A DNA stretch of 64,000 nucleotides from the NCBI RefSeq assembly GCF_036321535.1, contig NC_087436.1:31498001-31562000 (forward strand), given 5' to 3'. Source of the DNA: Camelus dromedarius. Lineage: Eukaryota. Shown here piece after piece: positions 19,030 through 54,521 of the stretch. Every line of letters begins with the position of its first letter. Position 1 is the stretch's first letter. Under the pieces are notes generated by a model. It was not told the DNA's origin and made no database searches. It saw nothing but the letters and a program-made list of their open reading frames with translations. Made by a program: the position numbers and the translations under genes.

Positions 19030-19083
19030 AAAAATCATTGTGTAGTAAAAGATAAAGTGTAGAAGTCATGTTCAATTAAATGA

Positions 19084-19089: not shown

Positions 19090-19140
19090 TCTGGCATGTT
19101 GTTGGAACATTTACAGTGGTAGCAGACAATGATTTTACTT

Positions 19141-19173
19141 CAGCTGTCCAAATGAGGCCAAAAGGTGGCGGTA
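19141..19173 (+). promoter_or_regulatory. CTCF-like site (upstream motif plus core)
   Basis: cagctgtcc-N6-GGCCAAAAGGTGGCGGTA resembles the CTCF core CCASYAGRKGGCRS with the upstream motif. Confidence 0.5.
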
Positions 19174-19189
19174 TATGGAGTGCCTTTCC

Positions 19190-19325
19190 TTATGAGTTAT
19201 AGCCCATGTTGTCAGAATGTAAAGGATCGCAGCAAAGCTCTTTCCACAGCTCTGAGTCTGGCTGCTCCCAGTCGTCTCCGATAATCCACTTCAGGTTGAA
19301 AGGTTTAAAATACTCAAAGCGATGG
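19190..19325 (-). CDS. C4orf33-like terminal exon E: (F)HRFEYFKPFNLKWIIGDDWEQPDSELWKELCCDPLHSDNMGYNS*
   Basis: Acceptor ttttttcctatgtgacctgaag|C, TAA at 19192-19190. Matches C4orf33 FH.LEYFK.FN....G.EW.QP.S.LW. Confidence 0.88.
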
Positions 19326-20663
19326 CTTCAGGTCACATAGGAAAAAAAAAATTCAAATTTTAAGTATTCAGTACACAGCCACACTTTATTTGTTCATTAA
19401 ATACAAAGAAAATTAAAAAGAAAAACATATATGTTATTTAATTACTTTAAAAATTGTTCATTAATCTGCTATATTATTTTTAAATGATATAATATATATC
19501 AAATCTTTTTATATGCATGTATTTTTCTTATGCATACATATGCAGACCTTGCCACAATATTCATTGAGAAGTGAGAAATCATTCTTTCTATGCTAATAAT
19601 TATATATACACATATATTTTTTTCTTAATTCAAATCTCACCTAAAAAAGTTTATATGAGCAGTTTATTGAGTTCACATTTTAAGGCATATCCAGATAGTC
19701 TGAATCTAAGGTTCATCATGCAATAATAAAGGTATCCTCTCGTGTCTTACTGGTGGTTTCTGTGAGTCCCTGACTACTACAAACACAGTCACTCAAGTCA
19801 CAAGAAGTACTGTATGCTAATTAAATACTTTCATTCATATAACTCTCCTATAAAATGAGCTTTACCTATGGATTTTCAAAGTACATAAGCTTTTTTACAG
19901 AAATCATGCAGTCCTGTACCGTGCTTAGTACAGCCTGAAGGAAGTTGATTCAGGTTGACTGTTATGTAGATTCATTTTCAATTAGATGGGAGTTGATCGA
20001 AATGACAGAGTTGTTAAAGTATAAAAAAATAGGTCAAACAAAAATGTTGAAAATGATTCATCTGTGCTATACATAAAGAATATCAAAAACTGTACATATA
20101 GTACACTTACTTAAATATTTATAATTTTATATGTATGTGTAGTTTTTAAATTTTAGGTACTGTGAAAAAATGATGAATGCTTAAAGTATCTCTTCCCTCA
20201 AAATGTGTAGCATCTGAAATGAGTGGGTACCAAACCAAAAATCTCAAACATTTATAAAATATAATACATAGGGAATACTTGCAAAAAGTAAACCATATTT
20301 GGACTTTGAGTTGGAGTTATGTAGGGCTGAGAAAATAATGTAACTATACAAAACAGGTTACTTGGTAGATTTAATTCTACATTTTAGAAAGCTTAAATAA
20401 TTTACAATTGTTCCCTGGTATTTTCAGTTCCAATTAGCTCATACAATATAAATCAGAAAATGTTTTAAAATAAATTTGGTTAATATATCACTTATTTGTG
20501 AATAGGCTACTTATTCTTATTACCAGAAATACAATGAAGATCTTTCTGGGATATTAAAAAAAACTTAAGGAGTTGTTGTCAAAGCTCTTATCTGCCCCCT
20601 CTCACAACTCATTGTAGGTAAAAGTTGAAAGTAAATACATAATCAAATTATTTGCATACTTAC

Positions 20664-20863
20664 AAGTTAGGCCCTTGTCCATCCTCAATCTCTTCATGTG
20701 GTGTTGAATAAAAGGCTTCATAAATTCTTCCAATCCCCAATCCATGAATTGCATATAAATTCATTTTATCAATACCAGGTGGAAAATATTCCCAAGGAAG
20801 AAATTTAATCCCATTCCATTGCTTGCAGGTAATGTTGACTTTCAATTGTAAACTCAGCTCTTT
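20664..20863 (-). CDS. C4orf33-like exon D (200 nt): KELSLQLKVNITCKQWNGIKFLPWEYFPPGIDKMNLYAIHGLGIGRIYEAFYSTPHEEIEDGQGPN
   Basis: Acceptor cctaactatgaaag|AAA, donor AACTT|gtaagt. 66 codons plus 2 nt, open, with LPW.YFPP, AIHG and YEA motifs. Confidence 0.9.
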
Positions 20864-23800
20864 CTTTCATAGTTAGGAGGAAATCATCAAAAGAGCATAA
20901 TTTTCGAGAGGCAGATTTAATGGGTTAAATAAATAGAACCAAAGTTTAAATTAAGCAAAAATGATATGATTGCTTTGTAAGGCAAGCTCGTCAGTCATAG
21001 TTCCTAAGTTGAAGACCCATTAGTAACACCACTGAGTATTCACCCCATTCATAGTTTTACTATTTATAAAAAGTTGAAAGTATTTATGGTCTGCTATAAA
21101 ACATATAAAATGTTAGATTCAATTTATGCAAACAGCTAATTTTTATAAGGACATAATTATACTGCTGACCTAGGCACTGGTTCTTTATGCTTAGAGCTCT
21201 AAGGAAAAGCAAGTGAAACTGCTTTGTTTGCTCATTAGCTCTAACTTTATTGTAGTTGTTAATATTTATGCTAGACCCCTGGAAGGCAAACCTAGACTCT
21301 GGAGACCTGTTAAGCAGCCACCTTAGCTCAAGGAACCTGACCTGAATCACAGAGACAGTCTAATGGAACTTAGAAGCCCCTACCTGCTTGAGTTAGTCAC
21401 TTCGTTCTTTCTCACGATTTTAGAAGTTAATCATATTTATTATATTTGTCAGAGTCACTCATTCATCAACAACTATTTTACAATTTAATCAGTTTTGCAA
21501 TTTTTTAGAAACTTTTTTTTGCTGACATCAATTTTTACCTTTTTAAACTGTTCATCTTTTTATAAATGCTTATTAATAAAATCTTTTAACAGGGACAAGT
21601 CATAAAAGGGATAGATTTTAGAAACCATCCATGTTCCAAATAGAGAATATTGGATTTCTTTTTATTTAGATTATCTCCCTGAAGACTTCATTCCCCTGTT
21701 CCCAAACAGATCCTGTCAACCCTAATGAAGAATCTAATATTAAGCGAAGTCAGCCAGAATCACTGACAATCCCATTCTAAAAATTACCCATTTGGAAAAC
21801 AGTGATGGTCAAGAGCCAAATTACCTTCCCTGCTCTTCCAACTGCACTCCCTCAGAGATCAAGACAACTTAATTTAAAAAACTGTTCAGGGAACTGCTGT
21901 AACAATGTTCACTGGACAACTGACAACTTCTATGAAGCGACTCATAAACTAAAATCTATGGCATCTGATAAACACAATCCACTGACTACAGTCATTTCCC
22001 CTAACAGTCTACTCTGCATCTAGAGAAGAAAGTACATGAGGCATTTTATCCAGGGACGCTCTGGAACTAGTGGTATTGTCAACTCCATACAGCTAGCAAT
22101 AGTTGTCTGCATTTTAGGATTTTTTTAAAAAGAACTTTTAAAATAAAGGATCTATTGTCAAATAATTGGAACCCAATACACTATCCTGCTGCCAGGACAA
22201 ACTTGAGTAACGTGCTTGACCTCCTTTCAGAACAGACATTCCCAAAAGCTCTTCATTATGGCTATAATTTCCTGATTCACTTTAAGGTGATAAATGTATC
22301 ATAGGAACCAAGCATTGTTTGAGATGCCATTTTTCCAAAAACCATTTTCAAAAAAAGATATTTTTATAAGATCTGAGCCCAATGAGCTCCAACAGATGTT
22401 AGGATCTAAATAGAACATTCTTATACCTCTCTTCTTTCCACTTGCTTCTGTATCAAGAAACTTAAATTAATTCCTGACTTTATCAAGCACTGGATTGTCA
22501 TTCAAGGAGTGTTTACTAAGGGCTTGCCCTGTGGCAGACACTTTTCAAGGAACTGGGCACACGGTGTCCACAAAACAAAGTCCTTGCCTTCACAGAGCTG
22601 ATATTCTAGCTACATTCATAGAACAGACTCTTGAGTATGAACAGACACCTGAAGCAAGCATCTTAAATTCCTTTACCAATTTACCAGGAGGACAGGATAA
22701 CATTTTTGATTTGCTGAAAGCGCTGCAGAAAAACTGATTAACGTTTAGAACTCAGACTACAGCAGCAAGCCATTCTCCAGCTAAATAACCTTTATAGTTA
22801 TCGTCTGCTATTCCCTTCTGCTTGAGAATACAATTCTAAGAGGTCAAACATGAGGTCTACCCTGTACACCAGCATAGTCCCATTGTCTAGCCCACTTAAC
22901 GTTTGTTGAATGATTAATGAGTATTAGGCCAACTAATGAATGAATAAATGAGTATACAGAAGTAGCTATTCACAGGGAACTCTATAACTGTGGTTGATTT
23001 AACACCTTTAATTTTTCACACTATCATCCCTCTTCCTTCCCAAAGTGAATCTGTCAAGTGTCCTATTACATTAGGCAGCAGGCAAGTTCCTAAGAAAAAT
23101 TGTAAATGCACTTGTCACACATTGAGGTAGCTATTTCTGGGCTATTCGCACCCCCCTCCATCCTTTCCACCACCTCCCAATATTTGGATACACTGTGGCT
23201 AAATTCTTTAAATTTTGCCCTGAGTGGTGAAGCAAAAGATATAGTAGCTGCAGGAGGGCACCAGTATGAAATTTACATATTATCACAAGGGAGAGCTCCC
23301 TTGTTTCCCCAAACCCCAGCATTGCGTTAGCCTGGGGCCTACCCTCTCAAACCCTACTCCAATTTCTCCTACTAAATTGCTCATGGTTGGATTTTTTTTC
23401 ATTGGAAAAATTTAAACCTGGTTCAGGAGCCACATTAAAATCTGGTCCTCAAAATACTGCAGACCAATCTTATCCAGTTTTATGGCATCTAATTACACAC
23501 TTTCAAACAAGTGCTTATTTAAGCCTTTGAGTAGAACCAGAGTTGCTTTTTTGAGAAAAGCTTTGGCTCCAATGGAGGCATTCCTGCACAGCTTCTTTTT
23601 AAGTAGGGTGAGTTTTCATTCCAGCAAGAAAATAAGAAGCTCTTCAATGTTCCCCTGAAATACCATGTTGGCCATCAATTTTGTCTCATTAAGATTACAA
23701 CAGTCTTCTATCAGTCAGCAGCACAGAACAGAAGCCATCATCATAGTGTGCTTGCTGTTGCTACCCACTGAATTTTCTGCCATGTAGTTCTTATTACAAA

Positions 23801-24909
23801 CCTAGCTAAGATCACACATTCAAAAGGAACTGATTAAGGTGGTCATTTCAGAAAATTTGTGTGGTTATAAATTTACGCAGATTGCTTACAAAAAAGATAA
23901 ATTCCTAGGATCCATTCAAGATCTCCTAAATCTGAATATTAAGGGAAGATCCAATGCCTAGAACAATGCTGTAGACATAGTAGGTACATACTAAATATCA
24001 GTTAAAAGAGTAAATGTATGTGTTTTTAAGTCCCACACTGCAGTGTTTCATTTCCTGAAGACAGACAGTTCATTCTGTGGGACAAAATCATCAGGATTTT
24101 CCCCACCTGAACTCTTGGCTAGTTACCCCTGGAATGTGAGCTCCTTCAAGGAAGGAGCTTTGATTGTCTTGTTCACACACGTAGCCGTAGCCACATGAAC
24201 AACAACCTGTATGTGATAAATGCTTGCAGAATATTTGTTGCATAAATGAATCGGCCTGTGAATCCCCATATTTATTAAGCCGCATACGTAATCCCAAGAG
24301 TGTTCAATAAGATTAGAACTTATAATATTAAATACAGGTAAAACCGAGCCAGAAAAGTTGAAAGTTGACATTGGTGACTTCGATGCATTTTAATAGCCAT
24401 TTTCTTTCTTTAAACAGTAATATTTACAATTTGGGAAGGGTTGTAATGGTTCTCATTTAGAGATTAAATTCTTCTTATTTAAACCTGTACAATAATGTGC
24501 TGTAAAATTGTATACCTACAGCTAAAAGTGTGAAATGTATTACTATATTAACATTGTGCCAGATTTTGCAGGTGGCATGAGGATATCAATGAACTTCTAA
24601 CCCAAAGAACCACTCTAGAAGGAAAGGTACAGTTTTTAACATGGAAGAGAAGTTTTTTCTTCTTTTCAGAGATAAGAAGGTTTCCTTATTTTGCAGACTT
24701 CTAGTGTAGTAGAATGGCTTGGTGATATTTGCTGTTCCGTTTTGCTTTGCTTTTTATTTTTGTATTCCAAAATAGAAGCAGAGATATTTAAAGTAGATAT
24801 TAAGAAAATATATACCAAAAAAAATTCAGAGAAAACTTGGTTTGTAAGAAATCCAATCAGCATTAACTAAATTAACAAAACATTTTGAAAAAGTGAATAC
24901 ATGTCATTG

Positions 24910-25035
24910 GAGTGAAAGCTCCAAGACAGCAGAGACAGCACATTATTTGACTTTGTATCCTCTGCCACTAACACAGTCAGGTCCATAAAAGATACTCAAT
25001 GAAAGTCTGATAAATGAATGAATGAATGAATGAAT
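24910..25035 (+). mobile_element. L2 3' end with (TGAA)n tail
   Basis: gtgaaagctccaagacagcagaga...ctcaatgaaag...tgaatgaatgaatgaa. Confidence 0.65.
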
Positions 25036-28000
25036 TCAATTCTGCCTAATAAATACATTCAAATAGCTAATTTTGTCTTCGTTAATGAAAGGCATTTTTA
25101 ACATACGACTTTCAGTAGCAATTCGTTCAATCCTCAAGTGCACATACCTTTCTCCACATATCAAGACAAAATTATGTTCCAATTTTCAGTGCTGATTATG
25201 CTAGGTACTATGGAGCCAAACCACTTTAAGAATTCAGCAAAACATTTAACTCTATTTGACACTTAAATGGACAGCAGCATTTTAAATCTGTCACTTTATT
25301 TCTGTTGCCTCCACCACTGTTGATGGGATTTTAATCTGGTTGGCATCCACTTAACAAACAATATACTCACAGTTCTCAATTTTCATTTTTCCTCTTTTAC
25401 AAAGTAGAAAGTCAAATGGTAAAGTTAATAGAGCTGTAAAAAAAATACAGTACCAAATTTATTTTAATGACAATGTGATTGTCACTGATTTAGGGCAGCT
25501 GCTCTCTGAATAAATAGACTCAGGGTCTAATAATTTGTGAAGAAAAAGACCAAGGCAGATGTCATTGCTGAGGCCTGAAGACCTGTTGGCAGACCACTGC
25601 CCAGGTAAGATTACTGGTCTCAGCGGCATGTTCCCTACAGCTCAAAAAACTGCCCAGCTGCTTTTGTATGCAGAGGTTCCTAGATTGATTTCTTACTGGA
25701 ACAGATTCCTCACAAACAAGGTTTATTCTTTATTGGAGCTTTAGTCACTTGAATTCCTCTCTGTATTCTTCACTGTCAGGCTTTGCAATTTTTATTTATT
25801 CTTGGTAGAATGCACTTACTATTGTTATGGCACTTTTCACTCTAAGGCCTTCTTTTCAGTGTCTTTGAGAAAGAAAGGTCTTTAGCTAGACATTTCTCAT
25901 GCTTGTTGAAGTCTGGAAATGATTTATTTTAGAAGAGAACAGAGGTGAAAGGAGTAGAATAAAAGATCATTATTCCCCCACCTTTGAGCACTTATCAGTT
26001 AATCACATGTTTATTGTTAAATGAAATGTGATGGCTTTCAACACAATTTTATTGCTTTTTATCTTTGTTTAAGAAGTAACACTAAAATATTTTAAAGTCT
26101 CATAAATAGAGTAAATCCAATAGGCTAAAAAATTTCCCTGTGGCTAAATTAACTTTAATTTACTCACTCTCACATTAATATGGTAAAATGGATTACTGCA
26201 ACCCTAGACAATGAAAATATGTTTTGATCGTATATTATTTATAAACACATTTACAAATATATTTTCATGGATGGGTCTATAGACAAAGCCAGTATTATTC
26301 TGTGGGTACCCTTTCAGATGTTTTCAACACTAGCTTCTTCCACACACAAGAATGAGTCCATAATAATCAGAATTGTCACTCTTTCAAACTTCTACTTAAT
26401 ATCCTGACATTTTAACCCATTGCTTTCCAAAGCTTCTTCTCCATGAGAATTATTGCATATATACTTAGGACTAAATTCTAAAACGGTTACTGAAAGAATT
26501 ATTTAACAAATATTTCAAAATGTATTGAGCTTACTCTGGGGTTTTCTAATTTTGCTACACAGAAATAAAATATTTAGACTAATTCCTTTAGAGAATAGCA
26601 AGATTCAAGGCCATCTGGTGCTTCTGTCTCTTCTTTTTCCAATAAAAGAAATTCTTCGAAGTAAATTATTGCCAATTACAAGTTCACCCAGGGAGAGGAA
26701 GAGAAAAAATAGTGACTGGATTTCCTTAAAAGACTATTCCGACTTCCCAAGTGTGAAGTCTTCAATATAGACTATTAAATAGTAGAGACTAGAGTGGAGA
26801 ATATACAGAAACTAAAACTAGATACTGTAACTACTAAGAATTTAAAGGAAACTTGTCATTATCTTCTTAATTAGATGCAAAAGCAAGCTGCTTATGAAAG
26901 TTAAGCCCCCATACTTAATTTTGATTTCTTATGCTAACCTTAAAGACTCTACAATGAAAACCCACTGAAATATTGAATCTGCATGCAGATAATCATTTCT
27001 CAAAACCAAGTTTATATGTCAGAAACAGAAATAGAAGGAAAGCATACATAAAAATATGAAGGTATATATTGTGTTTACTATCATGTTTCTCTTATTTGAG
27101 CCCAGAACTTGATTGCTGCATTTTTGTAATTCCAAATGTAAAATTAAAATAAACAACCTGTATTTTTTTCCCCTAAGAATGTCTTACTCAGAACAAGATT
27201 AAGGATACACCATTACTAAATTTAAATTCCCCTTTCTCCTATTAGGGCAGGACCAATACGTAAAAAGCAAGCTGGACATCAGGAAGTCTCCCAAAGAACA
27301 TGCCATATTGAGGGAAGAACTCAGTATGTTATATAAACAGTGCACTGGAGCCAGCCTCACATGAACTGGAGTTGTCTTAGCTATTGCCCAGAAAGCATAA
27401 GCAAGAACATAAGAAAAGATTCTATTTTCTTCCTCCATATTCAGAATAACACACTGATATCACCACCCTGGGTACAAGGGGCAAACATAAGTGACTGTTG
27501 TCTAACTTCCCAATGTTGAAAACTATTATGCTCACTTGAAAAATCTTTTTTCAGCACAAGTATTAGTTCTCACAAATTCTTAAATGGTTTACAATTTTAT
27601 GTCCAATCAAACATTACTACTACTGTGTAAGGACCACAGTAGGACCATCGGGTAGGCATATTATTTGCGGCACAAATCCCAACCTGTGTTTTAAAAAAAA
27701 AAAGCATTACATAAAAAGCTCAGTTAGATGTTAGCCAGGGTTCATAATGTAAACATATGCATGTGCCATTCAGAACTCACAAATAAACAAAAATGGAAAG
27801 GTCAGCAATGGTCTTTCTTCCTCACTGTTACTAAGCCTTTGAAATAAGCTCACGAAATGTATGCAGGTGGTTTTTTGATTAATTTGATAGAGGTACATCC
27901 ATGGAACCAATTTACAAGTGATTTGCAGGCAGGCTGGCATTACTGAAATAAACGGTGCTATTACTATGATTTATACTACTATTCCCAACACAAATGATAA

Positions 28001-31000
28001 AGTGAAATTTACAGTCCTTAATTACCACCATGAAAAATTGGGAGGGAGAAAAAAGAGCAAAGATTGGCAATTTGCAAACTTGTCAGTAAGGCAAGATGCA
28101 AAAATCCATTTGCTTTACTTAAAAAAGGCACTGCATAATGGGTCTTACTATATTGTTATCAATCCATTTGAGAAGGCGAGGGAGTTCAAAAAACAAATGA
28201 CCAGAATATAACCTTGAGATGCCAGGAAGTATGGTTTAGGAAAACAGCTGACAAAATGTAGCCTCCAGTTTTGAAAAGCAGGGAAGTCACAAAATACAAC
28301 ACTACATTATACATTATTCTGGGCCAATCACATGGCCCAATTTACTCTTCAAATCACCTCCTTTCAAATGTTTTTCAAATGCTTCCTAGCAGAGGAAAAA
28401 GAAAATTAAAGAAATAATATCTGTAATTTTTAACTAAATGTTTTTCTCTTGTCCCATTCATATCTAAATAGTATTGGGAGTCTTTTAGGATATTCAAAGG
28501 TGTCAGCCACACTGCTATCAACAGAACTCAAACAAAGCTACCTGGAGGAACCTACTCTGAGAGGCAAGGCTCAAGCACTGCAGTTGTCAAGAGGTTGGAG
28601 ATGATGTGATTGCCCAGTTTCCTGGGCCCTTGGCTCTTTCCTCTCTCATTTATTATCACTTCCTACTTTAAAAGTCCAGCCAGGCTTTATTTACAATACT
28701 TATTCCCTCTCATGACTGACCTCCTATCAGGGAATGCCTAGGGTTCTAATGGACCTTCTAATCACCATTTGCTAAGTCTGATTTAAAATACAGTGATTCC
28801 ACGCACTGGTCATTCATAGTACTTCACAGACTGGCTCACGGGAAAACTCCACAAAGTTACAAGACATGGAGACTGACTGCATATAACAGGCAAGAGAAAC
28901 AGAACAGAGACAATTCTTGTCTACCTGAATTAGAAAATAATGGTGCAGTCTTAGATATTGGCACACAGCCAAAACTTGGGAATTGATATGTCAGTTTCAG
29001 TAATGTTAAGTTTGAGTTGCTGCCAGGACACTCAGACGCAGATATTCAGCAAACATTATCAGGAATGTAGGACTAAAGCTCTGGAGACAACTTAGGCCCA
29101 GATATATACAGATGTTGGAGAAATCTGAATAGAAATGAAGGTTGAAGACATCAGAGGGGATCAGATGGCCATAGTGGAGGATGTAAAACCGAGAGGCCTG
29201 AAAGCAAAAACAAAGAAAAGACAAAGTTGGAGGACCCAGAATAGAGAAAATAATGAGATCAGAAAGGACTAATTGGAGAACTAGGAGGAGTCTGAAAAGA
29301 ATCTCAAGAAGAGAGAAATGATCATCAATGTCACATGCTGCAAAGAAATCAAGACAAATGAGAAGATGCCATTAAGTCTGTTGAACAAGATAACGTCAAC
29401 AGACAGAAACCAAAATACAGGAGTCTAAGAGATAAACACATTTAAGAAAGAGGAGTTGCAAGTGTAGAGATTTCCTATTAGAAATCAAGTAGGAAAAGAT
29501 TTAAGAGAATGCTATGGAAATGGATTAGGAGAAAGCTTTTTATATAGTAGATATAAAGCATATATGTGTCTTATTGATTTCTGATTTCTTGCTACTCCTT
29601 AAAATTTCTTCTTTCATGACTGGTATGTTATCCTGTATGAAAAAGTCTTCAGATAAGCTTTTTATGGACTTTATCCCTTTTGTATGTAGAACTCAGTGAT
29701 TGTGATGGGTTATTTTAGCTTTGTCTTGTTCCCAGTGAGCCCAAGAGCATTTGGGGATTCTACGACCAAGGACTTTCTCCATTTCTACTTCCCATCAACT
29801 CAGGCTTCTTTCCTACTCCATAAATCTTCATTTTTTTAAAGCATCATTTTCTCCATTTCAATAACTTTCCTCCTGAGATTTTAAATTATAATAACATTTT
29901 CACACCTTCTTTAATAACCTCCTTACTTCAAATTCATAAATTTTACTTTTCCCTCGAAATTTTCCATACCTCCATTCATCTGTATTTGGATGGTATCTCT
30001 TTCTCATAAGCATTTTCTAAGTTACATTTTCATCACCATACTTGAAATTCAGAACATAGAATTTGCAATGCTCTGTTTCTTCTAATTTATATTTCTTTTA
30101 ATATTTTCATCAATAGTTAATATTAACTACCATTTGAGAGCTTGCTGTATGTATTAAACATTTAATAGAGTGTCTGACATTCACTGTCTCATTTCATCAT
30201 CTCTAAAAACCTTTGAAGTGAGTATTTTTATTCTCTACGATTCACAGATAAGGTTAAGTCACTCATCCAAAGTCACAAGCAAGTAAACAACAAAGCAGGA
30301 ATTTGTACCCACGTCCATTCAACTCCAATGTTCATCATTTACCTTGTAGAAAATTCTATCTTAATCCTTTTAGTCTTACTTTATAAGAATATCAATTGTC
30401 ATTAATGCATTTACATTATTGGAACACTGCACAAAACAATTAAACTCTCATTAGTGAAAGCAAGCCTCTGTCAATTCTGGTTCAGTCTAATGCAAAATAT
30501 TCAAAAGGAGAAAATTCAAGAATTGTTTTGTTCCTTCTTCTATCCTCTCTTCGCACTTTATCAAGCAGTACCCTGTTAGTCCCAAGAGACTCGAGTTATT
30601 TTAATGGGTCTTTCCCTCTGTTACTCCCTCTGTTTTTTCCTGTATCCTAATTACTCTGAATTCATTTTTATTGATAGATAGTGTAAGTGTGCATAAGATC
30701 ACCACAATTTGAAATTATTCCTTTATTTTCATTAATGTTACGATACCCACATCTTCTAGAGTTGATATTAGTACACATGTTCTTTCTTATCAGATATAAA
30801 ATATATCATGTATCTATAAGTATATATACACAGAATTTAATGACATTAAGTGAGTAGTATATCTTTATGTAACTTAGTGTGAATATGTTAAATTTTTTAT
30901 TTTTATCATATTTTATATATTTATATGTATATATATAATTTAATGGTATTAAATCAGCAGCTTGTTTTAGATTAAGCAGTTCTCAAACAATACATAGATT

Positions 31001-31165
31001 GGTTTCTTAAAATATTCCTTTTATAACTTTTCTCTCCTTTCCACTTTCACAATTGAAATGCTAGTCATATTCATATCTTCTCAAACACATTAAAGATTAA
31101 AAAGCACAATTATATTTAAAAGGAAAAAGAAGATGCCATACCTTTATGTGATACTTTCTCTAGAA

Positions 31166-31364
31166 CTTCACTGTCCAATATGGTAGCCATTAGCCACACC
31201 TGGCAATTTAAATTTATATTTGAATTAATTAAAATTAAATAAAAGTTAAAATTCAGTTTCTCAGTTGCAATAGCCACATTTCATGTGGCTAGTGGCTACC
31301 ACTTGGGGCAAAGCATATACAGAACATTTTCCAAAATCACAGGAACTTCTGCTGGATAGTGCTG
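31166..31364. mobile_element. MER3 hAT/Charlie MITE
   Basis: ctgtccaatatggtagccattagccac...gtggctagtggctacc...ggatagtgctg, flanks ctctagaa and atctaaga. Confidence 0.8.
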
Positions 31365-31434
31365 ATCTAAGACGACTCAATAGATAAGTCAATCTTTAGT
31401 ATGTTTTGCAAATTCTCTTAAGATTATTCCCCCA

Positions 31435-31848
31435 TCACGAATGGATAAAGGAAATGTGGTATATGTATACAGTGAAATACTATTCAGACTTTTAAAAAGA
31501 AGTAAATTCTGCAATATATAACAAAATGGATGGATTTTGAGGACATTATGCTAAGTGAAATAACAAGCCAGTCACAGAAAGACAAATACGGTAAAATTCC
31601 ATTTATGCGAGGTATTCAAAATAGTCAGCTTCACAGAATCAAAGAATAAAATCCAGGGTTTGGGGGAATGGGAATTGGGGAATTACTAATCAGTAAGCAT
31701 AAGTTTCAGTTTAGCAAAATGAATAAGCTCTAGAGATCTGCTGCACATTATACCAACAGTCAACAATAACATAATAAACACTTAAAAATTTAAAAGAGTA
31801 GATCTCATGATTTTTGTTCTTACCACAATATTTTTTTTTTTAAAAAAG
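31435..31848 (+). mobile_element. L1MA-type 3' end
   Basis: gaatggataaaggaaatgtggt...gacattatgctaagtgaaat...gatctcatg..gttcttaccacaat. Confidence 0.8.
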
Positions 31849-33784: not shown

Positions 33785-33833
33785 TGCAAATGCATCACCA
33801 CTGGAGAGCAGTAAGACCAGGTGCTGTCTGTGC
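33785..33833 (-). CDS. C4orf33-like exon C (49 nt): (L)HRQHLVLLLSSGDAFA
   Basis: Acceptor tctttttgtttgcttag|G, donor GCA|gtgagt. Matches C4orf33 PHGQHLVLLLSG. Phase 2 to 0. Confidence 0.88.
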
Positions 33834-34889
33834 CTAAGCAAACAAAAAGAATCATGACAGAGTTGAAACTAGGCTGACAGTTCGGGTATTTTCAGATTAA
33901 AAAGTCACCCAGCTGTAATTTTTATCTAATCTTATTTGTGATTTTCTAGTAGCTCATTCTCAGAAAACTGCAGGTTACTTAATTGACTATAGCTAAGAAT
34001 GAGTAATGGTGGGACCCAAAACACTTACAATTACACAGTTAAAAGGAAGATGTTTGTCTTTTTCCATTTGTACAGGTTATGCAGACTTACTCAACTTTTA
34101 GAAAACCTACTATTAAAGGTAGCCTAAACATTGTCCATAAATCTAAACTTTATCTAAATTTTCAGCTCTATTTCTATTAATGGGGAAGTTGTCAGATAAA
34201 AGAACATTAATTTCAGGACCGGCTGTTAAGATTCATGTTAAAAATATTCAACACACTGTTCATAATATGCTAAAGGATTATGCTCTTAAAATGGAGATGC
34301 CAAAGTATCAGCATCAATTCAGCCCTCAATTTACTGCCTTTCATACAAGAGATGTGTGCCTTTCATCCAGTCTAAATTGAGTACATATTTGCCGTTATGT
34401 CATATTCACAAGGTCAAAAACTAAACTGCCTCGTCCAAAATGTTAAGAAATGAACATCCTAGAAGTATCTCTTAAGAATTCAGCTTGCCAATAAAGATGT
34501 TTTAAAATTGAAAATTTAAATTAGTAATGTTCAAAGTTGGTAACATAAGCAAATTAAACTGGAGAATTTTGATACTTAATTTCTTTAAATTGTATTATTT
34601 ATCACACTTAGTTCATTTGTAATAGTGGATAAAATATAACGATGCTCAATTTAGCACTATTTGATCTACATATTTAATTTCTTATAGAGATGCATATTAT
34701 TTATATTTTTAAAAAATAAATTACAGTGACTGGTAAAAATAACAAAGAACATATTTTTTGAAAATAAAATTGTATATACTTTCTACATTTCTCCATCACT
34801 TCACTGACATCCTAAGAAACATCTAAGGCACATAAATTCATACTTTTTAGAAAGAAAAATACACAAAAGTGTATCTTAATTTTTTTTTG

Positions 34890-35545
34890 TTTTCTTTCTT
34901 TTTAAATTCAATTTATTTAAACTTAAAAAAACCCAAAACAGTTCATCCATTTCTCCCACCCCCCAACCCCCACCTCTGGCAACCGCCAATCTATTTTCTG
35001 TATCTGTGAGCTTAGAACATCTTTCTGTCTCTTTCCATCTATCAATATAGACAGATAGATAATTTTAGATTCCTCATATAAGGGAGATAATCAGATAATT
35101 GTCTTTCTCTATCTGACTTATTTCACTTAGTATAATGCCCTTGAGGTCTATTCATGTTGCACAAGTGGCAAGACTGTATTCTTTTTTATGGCTGAATAAT
35201 ATTCCATTGTATATATATGCCACATCTTTATATATTCATCTATCAGTGAACACTTAGATTATTTCCATGTCTTGGCTGTTATAAGTAATGCTACAATAAA
35301 CATGCAGGTGCACGTATTTTTTCAAATTAGTGTTTTCATTTTCTTCAGATAAACACCCAGAAATGGAATTGATGGGTCATATGATAGTTCTACTTTCAAT
35401 TTTTTGAGGAACTTCCATATTGTTTTCCATAGCAGCTGCACCAATTTACATTCCCACCAACAGTATGCAAGGGTTCCCTTTTCTCTTCATCCTTGCTAGT
35501 CTTCTTGATAACAGCCATTCTAAGAGGAGTGAGGTAGTATCTCAT
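34890..35545 (-). mobile_element. L1 3' end
   Basis: tctgacttatttcacttag, ttttttatggctgaataatattccattgt, catttacattcccaccaacag. Confidence 0.8.
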
Positions 35546-35975
35546 CGGGCTCCCAGGATACCTCTGATATGTAAACTAATCAACCCAGAGCCATACCTCC
35601 TTTATCTGGCTGTATCAACCAGGAGGCAGAATTCTTCTGCCTTAATCATCTGAAGGCCAGGTCCAGGTAGCAGGCAAGTAGGGAGCACCCTTAGAGCTTA
35701 GAGACTGCCAAATTTTTTCAAACTAACCAAACCTAATCTGTTTATCCTGCCCTGCCTTGCCTTTCCCTCAGAAAATCCAAGCCTACATGCCCCCCTCTCC
35801 TCTGCCCCTTCTGGCTCCTGACCCATACCAGTGCTTCCCCATGTTGCTCTTCATGGTATACCATGCCTTCTCTTTCTAGGACCTATGAGTATAATAAACT
35901 TTGTTTTTCTGACCTCCTCCTGGGTCTCCTCTTGTAGCCGTATCTGAATGATCATTACATACAAGAACACAGAAC
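35546..35975 (+). mobile_element. ERV1-type LTR fragment
   Basis: aaactaaccaaacctaatctgtttatcctgccctgccttgcc...aataaactttg. Confidence 0.5.
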
Positions 35976-37134
35976 ATGATGTTTATGTTTCACTTGTGTT
36001 CCTGTTTTATACATGCAGCATTACTGCTAATTGTCCATCAGGCTCTATTCTTCCTTGCTACCTTTTAATAACAGACATTATTAGGTTTAGCTGTATGTGA
36101 CTGCCTGGCTAGAGGTGACATTTCTCAGCCTCCCTTGCAGCTAGATGTAGCCCTGTGATTAGGTTTTTGCCAAACTTATCATATAGATGAGAAATAAAAC
36201 TTGCTTTCGTGCATCTAAAAGGCAAAATTAGGAACAACATCTAGCAAGTATATAGAAATGAGTTTCAATTAAATATAATTACTTTCTAACAATAGCATTC
36301 TTTAGAGGCTACTGCCCTTTCAACACTGTATCTTCTTTTCAATCAAAGGTTGGATACAATAGGAGAGACTTCTAAACTGAATAAAACTTTGGAATAGATA
36401 TTGCTTAAAGTTTCTTCCAGCCCTAATATTCTACAATTCTAGCCAGATAGGAAAAGAAAAGTTGGGACAAGGAAGAGAAAGTAGGAGGCAGGACAAAAGG
36501 GTCAGAGAGAATGAGGGAAAGAAGAGGAAGGGGTAAAGAAAAGGCAACCTTTAGAACCAAGAAATAAGATTACTGGGAAATACATCTGAGTAACTAGAAA
36601 AAATGTTCTTGAATTTTCATTTTTATACAATATCAAATTTACATATCCCTACCCTTAAAAAAACCCACAAAATCTTTCAAACAAATATATTTTAAAATCT
36701 AAAGGGTAAGCTCTAGATTCAGAGTATAGACATAAAATTATGTTTCATGGTTTCGAGATTAATTTTATTGGAACTGAAAATTCCTCTTATTCATCATTTA
36801 TAATAAGTAGCAGTTTTACACTGCTTGATTGATTCATGTTATAATCATGGAGTAATTTACTATCCTAATTTATAACATGACATCTGTTGACATTTGCCAT
36901 ACTTACATCTGCTCTAAATTCTGTCACTTTACAAACATCTTAGTTAATGGCCCCCTGCAAGTTATTAATAAGTTTAATTAAAGCAAATAAGATAAAGGAC
37001 TTTGTCACACTCATCTCTGCATTGTCTCCAGTGCTTAACACAATGCCATTACTTTAAGTGTGGCTCAGAAATACTTTCATGCAATAATCATTTATTGAGG
37101 CCCCAGTCTGTTCTTGCTAATGCTTTGGGCACTG

Positions 37135-37360
37135 GAAGCAACACAGCATGGTGGTTAAGAGTGTGGGCTTCCAATTAGGATGAGTCTGTGTTTGAATCCC
37201 TCCTCTGCCATTGAGGACATCTCAGTTGCTTATACCTCAGTTTCCTTTCCTGTAAAATGAGTAAAATAATGATACTTCCCAGGTGAAGCCTGAATAAGAA
37301 TAACGTGCAGTATGCTTAGCATAGCCTAGCATATGTAAGTCCTCAATAAATGTTATTTAT
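37135..37360 (+). mobile_element. MIR SINE
   Basis: gtggttaagagtgtggg...ctcagtttcctttcctgtaaaatg...ctcaataaatgt. Confidence 0.7.
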
Positions 37361-39019
37361 AAGTCAATCACATAGTGTCCATAAAATTATGTCAATAATA
37401 CAACCATTCATATTATAATCTATGTACTATAATTCACTGAATAAACGTTCCATGAGGAAAGGACTTTTTGTCTATTTTTTTCACTATTGTATCTTCAGTG
37501 CTTAAAACAATGCCTGGAACACAGTGAACATCCCCCTAAATAAGTGTTTTAAATAAGTTAATCAGTAATCACGACATATTTTACATTAAAATAATTTCAT
37601 TCTCTTAATTACATTCATTTTAAGAATTATAAACGACATGCTAGAATGCTCTATTAAGATTAATTGAAGTGGGACTTCCAACATAACAAGATAATCTAGT
37701 TCCTTCCAGGATCCTGCCTTAGAAAGACAATATAGGCAATAATGACCTAGAGTAAAATGCCTACCTTTATATAATCTAAATAATAAAATCTTCAAATTGG
37801 CAATATATGTGGTGAGTTAATGAAGCATATCTATTAAGACATTCAGAGAATTCTTAACACGTGAGAACTTGAAAACCCAAAATGATAAATTCTCGATCTT
37901 CTTATTAATCTCGGGACTACACAAGACAAATTCTTTTAACAGAAGAAATTAAAATGCTAATAATGTCTGTCTTATCTCCAGACAACATACTTTAGTGGTT
38001 CCTAGTGTATGGCAAAATAGCTTATGCACATTTGTTTGTCCATTCAGTACCCCAGAAAGTTTGCCTAAAGGCAGGGGTCCAGGTAAACAAAAAAGAAAGA
38101 AAACATAAAGAACTTGAATAACCCATAAGGATTCATATTTAAGAATTACGTAATAACTGTTCTGGAGATACAGAGATATCATGGACACTAGCCACGTCCC
38201 TCTGCCAGATTTTCCTTCTCTCTTTTTCTCAGAACTCTCATTGCCTCTGAAGAACTTCACCCTTTGAACTATGTGGTTCTGGCAGGGCTGCCAATGACAG
38301 TATCACAGTCTCCTTACATACTGAAGCGGGAAGAAGCAATCTGGTTCCTTCAAAGTGGCTAAATTAGGATTGCTACAGATTTTCAACTGCTGAGTCACTC
38401 ACTTCCTCACTACCTCATAAAGGAAATCCCTCTCTATAGGAGGAAAGAGTAACACAGTCACACATGGATGTGGAAGGCATTTAGAGATGAATTTGAGGAG
38501 AAGGGGGTGGGGAGGATATGGAGGTGTGAGAAGAGAAAAGCTCAAGAGTGAATACTCATTGACATCACTTTATTCTTTGGATTGAGGCAAACTAAAACAG
38601 GCCAGCAAGTCCAACTCTGATTTTAAGTATCTGAACCAACAATTCTTTCTCTCTGCCCAAATTTCCTTGAGTTGTAGTTTCCTCACCTTAAAAGAATTTT
38701 GATGAATATAGGAGAGCTTCAATTTTACTTAGTCACAAAATATCTAGAAGTATAGAATTAGTTTATACATCAAAATATTTGGTCTTATAAATAATCAAGG
38801 TTTTCAATGTTGAGCCCTATTTTTTTGTTTTCTTTTTTTAATGTTTTATGCATTTATATGATTAAAACTACAAAACATTTGGGTTTTACTCAATGAAACT
38901 ATTCTCCTTTTTGAGATGTGAATGTCCACACAATTAATATAAGTGAAGAAAATAACTGATTCATTTTGAAGAAATTACCTTAGCAACTTAAGTTAATGAA
39001 ATTATTAAGCTATCAACAG

Positions 39020-39245
39020 AGACAGCACAGTGATTAAAGAGCACAGACTTTAAAAACAGACTGCCTGGATCCAGATTTAGACTCTGCTACTAACTAGCTG
39101 TGAAACCTTGGTTAAGTTATTCAACAGAGATATGTTTCCTTACCTATAAAATGGATTACAGTGTGGCGAAAGGACTTAACAAGTGAAAAGTGCTTAGAAT
39201 AACACCTGACACAATGTAAGCATTACATTAGTGTTAGTCACTATT
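39020..39245 (+). mobile_element. MIR SINE
   Basis: cagcacagtgattaaagagcacagact...tactaactagctgtg..ccttgg.taagtta...tttccttacctataaaatgg. Confidence 0.7.
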
Positions 39246-41033
39246 GTTGCCATTCTCATTCTCTAAAACAACTGATGCTGCAATTAGCAGATCCTAGGTT
39301 TCACCAGCGTGACTTGGCAACAACAATACAGTGCTTTAAAATGCCTCGTTGATTAGCTTATTTTATCATCTCACACTTTGCTTCAATGAAAGGATCAGAA
39401 CTGCCTGATTGGTGCACAAAAGTTCTGGTGTACATATCCAAATTGATGAAGCATTTTAGCAGTGTGAGTAATGCCAAAGCCAAGAGTAGAATGGTGGTTC
39501 CCTCTGCCACTTATCCTTTTTCCTCTAAGGGAAAGGAATGCAATGGAAAGCAAATTTTTACTGGGAACTTGGGATTTGAGACAGAAGGACTCTAATGCTG
39601 ATTGCTTCCTGCTCATTTTCTACAATATGATAGTGTGCTCAAAAAAAAAAAAAAAGCTACACTGTGATTCCAGAGATCACATGCTGAAATATGCAGAAGA
39701 CCAGGCATGCACTGTAACTACGAGAAGCACTCTTTGAGTATAAGCACTTAAATTCAAAATTGTAAAAACACACTATAAAAAACATACTATAAGCAAAAAC
39801 AAAAAACAAAAAGCAAAAAACAAAAACAAAAACAATCTGTTGGTCACATTCAGCCACTGAGATGCCTGGTTATACATCCAAAGGGTGAACAGTGATTTTA
39901 TCTGGGTAGTAGTATCACAGATGATTTTCATTTGTATATGTGCCTTTTATTATCTTTTAAGTGCTTTACAATGTATATGATTTTCTTTTATCATCAAAGG
40001 AGAAAAATCCCACAAAATATGTGATTTAAAAAAAAAAAAATAGGTTCAGTGACTTGGCTACACCTAACTGAAGCTGCTCATTTGTTACATTGAAGAAAAT
40101 CACAAAACAAGCCTTGCGAGAAGAGGCCAGAATGAACAAGCACCCTAAGGAACAACTTTTACCAAAATAGATGACCAAAATACCATGATTTAGATGACTG
40201 GCTGTCACAGAGAGAAGTCCAGTACCGCACTTTCACAGGCAGAATGTGGAGTGATTCAAACAGACCGAACATGCTAAGTGCTGTTTAAGTGTGGTAAAAC
40301 TGCATTTAACAATCCAAAATTACTACCTAAAGAGTTCTTTCTTTCTTTAATGCTATACCCATGCAATATGTCTCTAAACCGTACTCCTTGACTGAGCATC
40401 TTTACAGATAGCAATACTGTTTTTCCAGCACAGTAAGGGCCAGAAGAATCCATAAAGTCTTTACAGACTTCGTGAAGAAATGGGTGACGCCCTGGACAGG
40501 GTTAAATAGATGGGTTTAAATTTTAAAAGTTTAAAGTTTAAAAAAATGCTTTAGAGCACAGAACTCATCTCATTAGGAAATTAGCTTCTAAACTTGGTTT
40601 GCTTGTTGGCTCAGTCTATAAAGCATATAGATGGGTTGGCGTGTGTGTGTGTCAAACTTACTCAGTGGAGTTGAATTAGGGATTACAAATATCCTAAAAA
40701 ACATTGGGTATCATAACTATGTGAGAAGCTCTCTCTAATTTTGATATCTGTAAGACTAGTTTCATGAAAAAACATCAATTATGATGAATTTAAATCAGGA
40801 AGTAGGTCAACCGTAAGGAAATATCATCATCTCAGTCACCTGTGTGATTCTGCATAGTCTACCTACTTTAATGCTTCTAACTTTGTATGATGTCTATAAT
40901 AATAAATGTGGGTGGGACTCACATACATTTTGCAACCCAAATAGAATGTTTAAGAGTTTAATGTTTTTTTAAAACTATTTGGAAAGCTAGCCTAAAGTAG
41001 CAAGCAGTCTGTGTGAGTTAAAAGAGAACTTAC

Positions 41034-41093
41034 AGGTAGAGTTCCACCTCCAGGTACTGTTTAGTCTTGCTGTTCAAAAAAAAAATTCAACAA
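41034..41093 (-). CDS. C4orf33-like exon B (60 nt, 61 needed): VVEFFF[fs]LNSKTKQYLEVELY
   Basis: Acceptor ttttttatttgcag|TT, donor TACCT|gtaagt. Matches C4orf33 VVEAFFLN...QYLEVELCP. The T10 run (+ strand A10 at 41076-41085) gives in-frame TGA at 41076-41074. Confidence 0.85.
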
Positions 41094-41160
41094 CTGCAAA
41101 TAAAAAACAATCATCGTATTGAGAAATTTAATCTGGAAAGAGTCGAGAAAGTAAACATTT

Positions 41161-41722
41161 AGAGAGGTTGCCAAGTGGGAACTCAGGAAGCCAGACTGGG
41201 AGAAGAATTGCAGAGCATGGATGTTGTCAGAGGCTCCATCTCCTGCACTGGCCGTTCACGGAGGGGGACCACCTGCCAGACGCAGACCTTGGTGCTCAAA
41301 CATCCCCGCGGGCATCTGAGGATAACATCCTGAAACCACAAAGAGTCAGGACAAGAATCCTGACTGTGTGATCCCCACCCCTCCCTCCTGGCCATGGAGT
41401 CTGCTGTCACCTCATGTCCTCCACACCTGGGTTGCTATTTTCAGTCCTTGCCTAACATCTGAGGGGAAATGGAAGCTCCGGGGACTCCAAGTGAGTTCAC
41501 CGATGCCTTTAATTACACTTCAAATCCAGAAGGGGTCTGCCCTGACAGTGCACTCTGTTAATTCACCCTTACCGTGGTGACGACCCAAAACGTGAAACAC
41601 CCCACAGGAATTCTGTTTTAGTCAAATAGAAAAAGCTAATTCCAGTAGGGCTATCATAAAAATGTTACAAGGCAAGTTCATAAATTTTGATTAAAAAAAT
41701 GAATTCCTCTTTAAAAAAAAAG
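41161..41722 (+). pseudogene. Processed retrocopy of the 3' end of an unidentified mRNA
   Basis: GC-richer 560-bp block, ATTAAA at 41690-41695, A9 tail at 41713-41721, 14-bp TSD gaaagtaaa(c/t)attt at 41147-41160 and 41723-41736. Confidence 0.75.
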
Positions 41723-41979
41723 GAAAGTAAATATTTGTAAAGAGTCACATTTTGAAGAAGGAAAATCTAGTGGCTTATAAAAATTAAAGTTTTATATTCA
41801 ACGTTACTGCACACTATTTTAGAAAATCCAGCGTAACGTTCTTGGGACCTTGTGAATATTAAAAGTTAAAGCAATTTATCTGTTGTCTATGCAAAACATT
41901 CTGCTTCAATTCTTTCCCAAAGTAATTTCATTGAAACATCAATTCCACAGAATTTCTATAGACAGTAGATATTTAATAT

Positions 41980-42200
41980 GGGAGGCAGCTTAGAATCATA
42001 GTTGATTTCAAATTGTGCCTAAGCCACTCACGTGACCTTGGACAAATTTCTCAACTGCCTTATGTAGCAGTTTCCTAACCTGTGAAATGGAGATAAAAAT
42101 GATATCTACGTCATAGAACTAATGCATGAAGTTCTTAGAACAGTGTCTGGCACATAGTAAGTACTTAATAAATTGTAGTAGTCATTGTTGTTATTAGTAT
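41980..42200 (+). mobile_element. MIR SINE
   Basis: gtgaccttggacaaat...cagtttcctaacctgtgaaatggag...agaacagtgtctggcacatagtaag. Confidence 0.7.
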
Positions 42201-42609
42201 TACTGATATAAAAAGAATATATAATATATAAAGAATATATATAATATACAAAGACTAAATATATAGTTTATATATTAAGTATTTATATATATAAATAACA
42301 AAGGAAAATATATTCGTGTATGTTGGGTTAATAATATGAAACAGATGTCTCTTCTGAAAGATTTGGGAATTACTAGTTTATTAATAATATTCATAGTGAC
42401 TCTCCAAGGGACAAATAGAGTTTGCAGTGTTTTCCAAAATTTCTTCCACTGGGATCTTTTTTCCCCCTCAACATATTTCTCAAAACTAATGTCAATGAAC
42501 ATACTTGAGGGATGTAAGTAAATAAAAAGAGGATTTCAAAAATAATTTTTTAAAAGATAATACAAACTAATTCATCTACTATAAGGAATTTCTAACATTC
42601 TAGTTCTAA

Positions 42610-42795
42610 AATCAGACAACCTGGCTTTTTGAGTACTAGCTCCATTATTTATGTACTGTGTGATCTTAGGTAAGATAATGAACTTCTCTGAGCCTCTGCT
42701 TCCTCATTTGTAAAATGGTGATAGTAACCATGCCTATCTCACAGAATTGCCATGACGATTAAATGAAACAATACTTGGAAAGCACTCACCAGAAT
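42610..42795 (+). mobile_element. MIR SINE
   Basis: ctgtgtgatcttaggtaag...ctctgagcctctgcttcctcatttgtaaaatgg. Confidence 0.7.
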
Positions 42796-43338
42796 GCTGT
42801 CCAGCTGAGGACAGAGATTCTGCTCAGGGCATCCTACGCACTGGAGTGTCTCCATTCTTCTACCCCTACCTTGTTAAGACTGTGACTTTCAAATGCCAAG
42901 AAGGCTTGAGAACCAGGAGAATTCATACATCTCCAAATATTTCTGGTTAAGGACACGTTACTGCTAGTGTAAGATTTTCTTGAATGATAACTTAAATCCC
43001 AACCATAAAAGGCCACCGCATAACAAATCATTCACCTTCTGAGACCCTTCATGACTGAGCCCTGCTAGGACTGTGTCATTACCAAGACTTTGGGGTCCAA
43101 AAGAAGCTGCTGAGAGAGCTCCTGTATTTTCTCCTGCTTTGTATGTGCTTGTTTCTGCCAGATTTCTGTATTCATTGTTTTTACAAATAAGGAAATTAAT
43201 GTAATTAATTATATTGGGATTTGAATGGCACAGAGGAGGGGAGTTCTTTCTATCTGTAGCTAAACAGATACACTATAGCAAAAAAGTGCCACAACATATG
43301 CACAAAATGAATATTAATTGTTAGCTTTCATTCCCATT

Positions 43339-43513
43339 CAGAGGTGGATCTAGGACTTATGGGACTAGAAGCTTATACAATTTGGGAGGACCCTGTCTGA
43401 AAGTAAAAATACAAAACTATGAAAACAAAATTAGACAGAGAACTTTAGAAGGGACCTATGCAAGTATAAGCCCTGAAGCATAACCTTCATTAGCTTTATA
43501 GTAAATCCACTCA
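43339..43513. mobile_element. MER53-like hAT MITE
   Basis: cagaggtggatc...gaagcttatacaatttggg...ccttcattagcttt..gtaaatcc. Confidence 0.7.
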
Positions 43514-43519
43514 GGGGAC

Positions 43520-44440
43520 AGAAAATACATGTTCCTGCCTTCAAAGAGTTTTAAATATAATAAAGGAAACAAGATAGTACCTAAGAGTTTAAACTGCAGG
43601 CAAAAATACTACAGAAAATTCAATATGGGGATATGTAAATGCCACAAAGCAGCATATAATAAATTTCTAAAAAAAATGGAACAGCACATCTCTCTCTTTT
43701 TATATGTATAGTAGGAGTTCAAAAGGTAGAGTAATCACTATGAACTGGATTATCTTAGAAGGCTTCACAGGAGAGGTAACATTTCAGTCAGGTCAAAAAG
43801 AGAGGGTTTGGGTAGGCAGAAAGAAAGGAAAACTCTGTGTGCTCAAAGGTTCAAGTTATTTAACTTAAAATGAGCAGATCTGCTTAGTTGAGGCAGAGGT
43901 TTCTGGAAGGACAGTAATTGAACACAATTTGAGGAAAAGCCAATCAAATGCCTTGAATAGCAATCTAACAATTTGGGGCTTAACCCTGCAAGCAAAATGG
44001 AGCTATTAATCTTCTTGAAAAAATGGAGTAACATAATCAAAACAGCATTTTAGAAGCACCAGCCAGGTCATTGTGGATAGGATAATCAGGATCAGGAAGA
44101 CTCTGGGAGCAGAAACACCACCTGAAAGCACACTATAATAGTCTAGACAATCCTTAAGAAGTCATGCTGAGGATGGACACGAAGGGGCATGGTCAAGAGA
44201 CATCCACAGAGAAGAACCAACAGAACGCGATAAATGTTTGAGGGGGAGAAAAAAAGAAGAGATCATGATGACATCAGGATCTCAAGGCTGGTAACCTGGA
44301 GAATAACTCAACAGAAACTGGAAAGTCAGAAATAAAAGTGATTGTGTATGAGGACAAGCTCAGATTTACCATGAGAAGTTTGGGTAAAGAAAGAATATAT
44401 TCAGGTTTTGATGTCCACAACAAAGTTGTAAATATGGTTT
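43520..44440 (-). mobile_element. L2 fragment
   Basis: cctgccttcaaagagttt, gaaggcttcacaggagaggtaacattt, agcattttagaag. Confidence 0.55.
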
Positions 44441-45182
44441 CAAGAGAGATTTTAGAGAAAGAATTTCTTATTAAATTCTAGTACATCAAGAAGTGAATTT
44501 TTAAACAGGACAACAGCATATATTGGAAGGTTTTGGATTTGGAATCAAGAGGCCTCAGATGTAGACACAAGTACGTTTAAGGTAGCAAGACTAATAGATC
44601 CTCACAGGTAGAATTTCAGTACACTATGATTCCATGAAAAGATCATCTTATTTCCCCTAAGTTATTCAACGAAAACTGTAAATTACAAAAACATAAAATA
44701 TCTGGATGGAAAATCCTTCTCAAAATATACAGCTACTTTTTTTTAGAAATAAGTATCACAGTACTACTATGAAGTTTTTAAAAAATAGAGTTTTATAGTT
44801 CTAGAACTTAGAAGATACCATCAATTTAAATTTAAAGATGCATGCTTTACAAATACCACTCAACACCTGAAATAAATCAATTATCTATATTTAATACTTG
44901 GACTAACATTTTCACATGAATTGCTAATTAATACTGTTTCACAAGTAATTTTCTTAAGTGCCTATCAGATATAGACTGTTCACTCCAAAATCTCTAATTC
45001 CAGGTCATACAATTTTTGACACCATCTTTCTATGTCATTGAATTTTCAGATATTCAGGATGTGGAGCATGAGGTATTTGGAAACTCTGAGAAGATGAATA
45101 GATATTATAAGAGAACACTACCATATATCACAAAATCTGCTCTTTCTCTCAGCTTTGGCACTCAAAATAGGAAATGTCTCAC

Positions 45183-45363
45183 CTTCATACTTCCAGAGTC
45201 CATCAAAAGGTTGTCCTGCTTCATGATGTGGTGCTGGGGGATCATCAAAGAAAGGAGCATTCAGGTCCATCAGTAAGCCTTGGACCCCAGATCTAAACTT
45301 GGGAGTCATAGGCCTTTGCAGCACTGGTAAACTGTCCCACATGGTGGTAATTCTATATTCCAA
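45183..45363 (-). CDS. C4orf33-like exon A (181 nt): LEYRITTMWDSLPVLQRPMTPKFRSGVQGLLMDLNAPFFDDPPAPHHEAGQPFDGLWKYE
   Basis: Acceptor ctgtttcattttgacag|TTG, donor GAAG|gtgaga. 60 codons plus 1 nt, collinear with C4orf33 residues 1-60. Confidence 0.9.
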
Positions 45364-50846: not shown

Positions 50847-50904
50847 CTCTCCTCTTCCAGTTGGCAGTTGTTCTCTTTCTTGGTTACTTTTGAAAATTTC
50901 AGTC
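50847..50904 (-). CDS. Internal exon of unidentified upstream gene: (G)LKFSKVTKKENNCQLEEE(S)
   Basis: Acceptor ttttcttatcattattttaaag|GA, donor GAG|gtaaga. 58 nt, phase 1 to 2, open, purine-rich. Confidence 0.7.
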
Positions 50905-54481: not shown

Positions 54482-54521
54482 CTGTTTGGTAAAGAGCAGC
54501 ATGCAGGGACTCAACAGCATG
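54482..54521 (-). CDS. Internal exon of unidentified upstream gene: HAVESLHAALYQT(G)
   Basis: Acceptor cctaattcttattgcag|CAT, donor ACAG|gtattt. 40 nt, phase 0 to 1. Only this frame stays open into the next exon. Confidence 0.65.

Follow-up and report, generated by a model that had tools for sequence, protein, structure and literature searches.

With a probability that we put at roughly 0.86, the dromedary locus described here is the disabled seven-exon camel version of an ancient paralog, termed clade B below, that stands in tandem with C4orf33 and is predicted to be secreted, where intact, with a CBM9/DOMON-like fold. An ancient duplication produced C4orf33 and, downstream of it, the clade-B paralog; the latter would have outlived the boreoeutherian ancestor before being lost separately in several lineages. 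The intact gene is predicted to encode a protein of ~236 amino acids, made up of a signal peptide and one CBM9/DOMON-like beta-sandwich.

The paralog comprises seven exons and six introns spread over 35 kb of the window (the whole 64-kb stretch of DNA that was analysed), and amounts to 252 codons and a stop (Table 1). A preliminary description had reported exons 3 to 7 on the minus strand; all five were recovered with the sizes and positions given there, each with an AG acceptor and the first four with a GT donor. Exons 1 and 2 were found by searching with full-length relatives, and their phases join correctly to position 45363. All 12 splice dinucleotides are intact, and the product aligns without gaps to the Tamandua protein P0004 (189/252 residues, 75% identity), exon 1 matching residues 1-25 of the latter at 72% identity in tblastn. 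The description had also proposed that a single 1-nt change of frame turns the five exons into a 208-aa protein. The change was located at the T run in exon 4 and the join itself stands, but the gene is not thereby made whole: the peptide from the five exons lacks an initiation codon, opening with TTG after the acceptor, and two further exons lie upstream, the first of which carries an in-frame TGA. Two points were absent from that account, namely the tandem neighbourhood and the exons for the signal peptide, in which the paralog departs most from C4orf33.

Table 1. Exons and lesions of the clade-B paralog in the dromedary window
Feature	Position in window	Strand	Remarks
Coding exon 1	54482..54555	(-)	74 nt, GT donor; ATG and signal-peptide-like hydrophobic stretch; tblastn and hydropathy
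Coding exon 2	50847..50904	(-)	58 nt, AG/GT; links signal peptide to domain
Coding exon 3	45183..45363	(-)	181 nt; counterpart of the first coding exon of C4orf33; T52M, H60Q, G91H
Coding exon 4	41034..41093	(-)	60 nt, against 61 in C4orf33; C124Y, P125L (codon 125 straddles exons 4 and 5)
Coding exon 5	33785..33833	(-)	49 nt, against 52 in C4orf33; G127R
Coding exon 6	20664..20863	(-)	200 nt, as in C4orf33; contains clade-B marker M175
Coding exon 7	19190..19325	(-)	136 nt, ends at TAA
In-frame TGA, codon 15	54511..54513	(-)	limits the ORF that opens at the ATG to 14 residues; seen in one assembly
10-T run, one base short of frame	41076..41085	(-)	exon 4; frameshift and immediate stop; homopolymer, one assembly

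Downstream of the coding region, AATAAA motifs occur 100, 322, 596 and 643 nt 3' of the end of exon 7. A TATA-like TATAAAT lies ~45 nt 5' of the ATG (window 54556-54610), followed by a T-rich tract that ends in AAA and not in AG; together these may represent a promoter or an acceptor that has died. The 64-kb window contains no CpG island, and a search of the window against Rfam returned no match.

Exon 6 alone matches named vertebrate proteins with E values of 5e-27 to 9e-20, so the similarity is far beyond chance. When the genome was searched with this exon, two matches were returned, the exon itself and G000:C1:31577908-31578099, while P0004 gave seven exon matches at the same two loci and one weak match elsewhere (E 0.45). 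Only two loci of the family are thus present in the genome at E<0.3. The second is the canonical C4orf33, which lies 23 kb upstream of the paralog on the same strand and whose product is identical to Camelus dromedarius XP_064352183.1, one residue different from the Bactrian protein; the possibility raised beforehand, that the locus is the only C4orf33 copy in this genome, falls away. The two products are identical at 96/191 positions (50.3%), in line with the earlier estimate of about 45-50% along the full length, and they have the same conserved motifs and the same intron positions and phases. The core exons measure 181/61/52/200 nt in C4orf33 and 181/60/49/200 nt in the paralog, and the one-codon gap in exon 5 is also visible in the protein alignment. 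Unlike C4orf33, the paralog has two additional 5' exons with a signal peptide, carries M175 (F in clade A), lacks a CpG island and is disabled here. The canonical C4orf33 is best explained as a leaderless version of the paralog protein.

The camel C4orf33 itself ends six residues early, at 193 aa instead of 199, in both the dromedary and the Bactrian records (G000:C1:31575918-31576002, L004), and the apparent cause is the deletion of one nucleotide from the last exon; as it recurs in the Bactrian camel, the indel is real.

The age of the duplication was addressed with a tree of 46 rows and 193 columns (LG+C20+F+G4), a subset of 81 rows from which the pig fragment and the chimeric models were left out. 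Tetrapod C4orf33 forms clade A (support 100/95), while clade B (100/97) unites the camel copy with proteins from Tamandua, aardvark, tenrec, marsupials, turtle, alligator, lizards and amphibians and with one of the two coelacanth proteins. Holding tetrapod A and B together, as a tetrapod-only duplication demands, is rejected (p-AU 0.0024), and the duplication therefore predates the split between coelacanths and tetrapods. The membership of the camel copy is agreed upon by its position in the tree, its signal-peptide exons, its marker residues and its site downstream of C4orf33. At the eight columns that tell A from B it has the B state in six, one A-like residue (V150) and one that is neither (T195). 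Chimeric models in turtle, frogs and a lizard run from an A domain into a B domain, the same tandem order as in camel. The proposal that the locus is an old DNA-level duplicate, and neither the orthologue nor a retrocopy, is borne out by the shared introns, by the presence of C4orf33 23 kb away and by this ancient split.

The ray-finned fish proteins called 'c4orf33' are sister to clade B in all ten tree rows (98/96), although a constrained tree that places them with clade A is not rejected (p-AU 0.068). M175, a marker specific to clade B and ray-finned fish, is present in 17/17 ray-finned rows of the larger set. In a metagenome scan, 13 loci were found; of the vertebrate-like ones a single locus was examined, L014, which belongs to clade A and has no bearing on the paralog. 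The family extends beyond animals, with Atlas clusters at 0.96-0.97 bacterial. In L016, the domain occupies the N-terminus of a 430-aa protein that has a further C-terminal domain.

A hydrophobic N-terminus, scored with a hydropathy window and not with a signal-peptide predictor, is present in 20/30 clade-B and 0/24 clade-A proteins, and in 22 of 31 hand-picked ray-finned fish rows. The structure model of the wallaby orthologue (pLDDT 87) is a DOMON-like beta-sandwich, for which only 3 of 48,161 chains reach Z 8; Foldseek agrees on the fold (E 7e-6). The closest structure is BACUNI_03838 (4jpq), a putative carbohydrate-binding protein (Z 14.2, rmsd 3.6, 172 aligned residues), followed by the CBM9 module of Thermotoga Xyn10A (1i82; Z 11.7, rmsd 3.7, 157 aligned). 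At the level of sequence the resemblance to CBM9 and CBM9_2 (PF16011) amounts to 10-16% identity, below the Pfam cut-off, and clade B differs from these in being, as predicted, a standalone secreted protein of vertebrates. Weak CBM9_2 matches (E<=1) were obtained for 8/65 diverse members (best E 0.0048) and for none of three mammalian orthologues, and CBM9_2 appears in one Atlas cluster, in 11% of its members. Pfam gave no family for three single-exon peptides and only one chance match (E 0.17) for three orthologues, and the PDB gave no match by sequence or by profile.

Across the family W53, W101, E104, E107, E120, E122, N176, R187 and H209 are invariant or nearly so. The odds are about even that the intact protein is a secreted glycan binder acting through such conserved Trp, Glu, Arg and His residues; that chitin in particular would be its ligand is improbable. 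The main rival on function, which we consider doubtful, is that the intact orthologue is an enzyme or a heme- or metal-binding DOMON protein instead of a lectin. E104, E107, E120, E122, N176, R187 and H209 could form a catalytic or a metal-binding site, the model matches heme DOMON domains at Z 6.5-9.2 (9.2 for the heme DOMON subunit 2ivf_C), and M175 occurs specifically in clade B and ray-finned fish. However, carbohydrate-binding modules take the first two places among the structural matches. In heme-binding DOMON domains a Met/His pair of axial ligands is conserved; here H209 is invariant, but no Met is conserved family-wide. The fusion partners of the domain, moreover, include the chitin-binding CBM_14, which was detected in 5/52 scanned homologues (one above the cut-off and four below), alongside ShK in 2/52. 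Seven such homologues (P0132, P0133, P0135, P0137, P0148, P0151 and P0158), probably invertebrate, combine one to five domains of this kind with CBM_14-like or ShK modules, and most of them begin with a hydrophobic leader.

Full-length clade-B proteins are found in anteater, marsupials, reptiles and amphibians. Tamandua XP_076995709.1, Notamacropus XP_072477114.1, Alligator XP_019349817.1 and Anolis XP_008110237.2 are clade-B orthologues named only 'UPF0462 protein C4orf33 homolog', a shared name that hides the paralogy; their frames are open, unlike that of the camel copy, which is 75% identical to Tamandua and 58-67% to the others tested. The Tamandua orthologue has the same leader and C-terminal extension as the camel copy. 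No leader is present in the models from aardvark, golden mole and tenrec, and those of golden mole and tenrec are also without the last exon, so that all three genes are only putatively intact. No full-length boreoeutherian or bird member was seen among annotated proteins (not genomes), in the best 120 of 349 and the best 120 of 610 matches, and no camelid clade-B protein is among the matches listed. Pig has a broken 158-aa clade-B model, and in cats C4orf33 isoforms are spliced into decayed clade-B exons. The suggestion that the locus might be a poorly annotated or patchily lost family member thus holds in part: patchy loss in mammals fits, but a working gene in the camel is not supported, given the two lesions and relaxed constraint.

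How recently the camel copy died can be gauged from its lesions and residue changes. In a simple neutral simulation with an assumed indel rate, a divergence of 0.02-0.05 substitutions per site is expected to bring 2-5 lesions. Of the conserved residues, a fraction of 0.11-0.17 has changed, which corresponds to about 0.05-0.09 substitutions per site. Combined, lesions and residue changes suggest a decay of about 0.04-0.08 substitutions per site. On an assumed clock of 2e-9 substitutions per site per year and the assumed indel rate, the figures suggest ~20-40 million years of decay. Boreoeutheria is older than this, and the gene would thus have been lost repeatedly. The camel copy and the broken pig copy have eight residues in common, H60Q among them (one of the eight also occurs in Tamandua). 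Constraint may therefore have begun to relax in the artiodactyl stem, before pigs and camels split, which makes it harder to say how many losses were independent.

It could be argued instead that the gene was lost once, in a boreoeutherian or laurasiatherian ancestor, and that the camel, pig and cat remnants descend from one dead gene. The lack of a full-length boreoeutherian member in the best 120 of 349 or of 610 matches fits such a history, as do the residues common to camel and pig, one change (P69S) being found in cats as well. Many insect-eating boreoeutherians have annotated genomes. We nevertheless regard a single loss as unlikely. At 0.15 substitutions per site, the same simple simulation predicts 11-13 lesions where two are observed (P<=0.001). 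The pig model, as far as can be inferred from protein, is in frame across the T run of the camel and broken elsewhere, while cats retain H60 and have a more decayed remnant, 50% identical to Tamandua.

A parallel for repeated loss in placentals is offered by the CHIA chitinases. According to PMC5955627, Tamandua keeps four and aardvark five of these genes, and Cetartiodactyla and Carnivora have lost most; clade B is similarly retained in anteater and aardvark and decayed in camel, pig and cats. The likeness breaks down in that wallaby and wombat, which are herbivores, keep clade B, whereas no copy was seen in birds, bats or treeshrews that eat insects. Diet as the driver of retention would therefore fit poorly by itself and is a weak lead; low body temperature, a lead equally tentative, would fit as well as diet does. 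A broader reading, which we consider less likely than not, is that bony vertebrates possess an unnamed secreted CBM9-like lectin beside C4orf33, which was still present in early boreoeutherians and disappeared several times thereafter (in camel, pig, cats and probably also in human and mouse), with a separate loss in birds, the losses tracking diet (chitin) or high body temperature, and that the c4orf33 of ray-finned fish is its orthologue and not that of human C4orf33.

That the camel copy is disabled follows from more than its frame. Constraint on it has been relaxed. Among columns at least 95% conserved in the vertebrate rows, 11/66 are changed, against 0/67 in the camel's own C4orf33 and 0-2 in the Tamandua, aardvark, wallaby, tenrec and golden mole orthologues. 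Columns otherwise invariant in clade B are changed at 8/72 positions, compared with 0-3 per member when 24 members were left out in turn. A Fisher test against Tamandua gives p=0.009. The terminal branch has a length of 0.24, whereas that of Tamandua is 0.075 and that of camel C4orf33 is 0.022. The CPHG motif has become YLHR. Counting against relaxation, 12 of 13 deeply conserved residues checked are unchanged, and the splice dinucleotides all survive. Neither exon skipping nor a downstream ATG (M52) rescues the frame. With two lesions, each seen in one assembly, and no second clade-B locus in the genome, the best explanation on sequence grounds is that the locus is a unitary pseudogene from which no protein would be made.

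It is very improbable that the gene is intact in camels and that errors of assembly account for both the stop and the frameshift, or that a single null allele was assembled. In favour of this reading, the frameshift sits in a T homopolymer, the splice sites are intact and identity to Tamandua is 75% over 252 residues. Two RNA-Seq runs from one study also contain 53-55% of the words from 19000-21200, but this region is mostly intron, so that these words may be DNA background and carry no weight. The stop, however, is a substitution independent of the frameshift, and conserved columns show an excess of change. DNA runs, two of them from a study with no flag as a possible source of the assembly, contain 100% of 221 sampled words at 19000-21200; this and the short C-terminus of C4orf33, shared with the Bactrian camel, are indirect support for the accuracy of the assembly, and again no camelid clade-B protein appears among the matches listed.

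Similarly remote is the idea that the decayed exons persist as alternative 3' exons of read-through C4orf33 transcripts, with a regulatory or neo-coding role. Isoforms of this type are recorded in RefSeq and UniRef for Felis, Puma and two Lynx species (P0103, P0315-P0328), in which C4orf33 is spliced to exon 3 of the remnant, itself decayed, and to part of exon 6 in the wrong frame; the splice sites of the camel paralog are intact. Yet the felid tail is degenerate, and the last exon is the usual one in all three camel C4orf33 models that were seen. Other origins are ruled out: a retrocopy by the six introns over 35 kb and the tandem position beside C4orf33, an orthologue of C4orf33, fast-evolving or not, by the grouping in clade B, the leader and the separate clade-A gene 23 kb away, and a recent duplication by the tree and its p-AU of 0.0024.

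A literature search by gene and family names, covering titles and the openings of abstracts, showed no work on the paralog or its fold among the papers listed; in the supplements of screens for gene loss, the locus may figure by a LOC number. In the portions of PMC9004415, PMC10142993, PMC4758249 and PMC10253896 that were available, C4orf33 is mentioned only in tables or lists. The camel locus is apparently an undescribed unitary pseudogene of an ancient secreted paralog. While the camel copy itself is a fossil, the hidden paralogy matters more widely, one database name covering two genes that split before coelacanths and tetrapods diverged. Fish 'c4orf33' models may address a gene that most placentals have lost, and if both human and mouse are without it, this candidate loss is invisible to screens referenced to either species. 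The UPF0462 family also gains a testable function, the predicted secreted form with its CBM9-like fold being suited to a glycan array.

Some minor features of the surroundings may be added. Three exons on the opposite strand beyond C4orf33 were recognised as what we take to be SCLT1, head-to-head with C4orf33. A genome search with PF15964 as a proxy for SCLT1 gave a match on another contig only. The putative exons lie on the + strand of G000:C1 at ~31592868 (L006), near 31604084 (L007) and at 31612481 (L008). The expected start position reads ATA, an upstream ATG is followed by a stop, and an in-frame Met is present in exon 2; camel SCLT1 may use a downstream start, or the gene may be degenerating. 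Within the window, self-comparison revealed fragments of interspersed repeats, 67-78% alike, at 664-1195, 6831-7878, 17347-17849, 35063-35545, 31439-31593 and 58540-58770.
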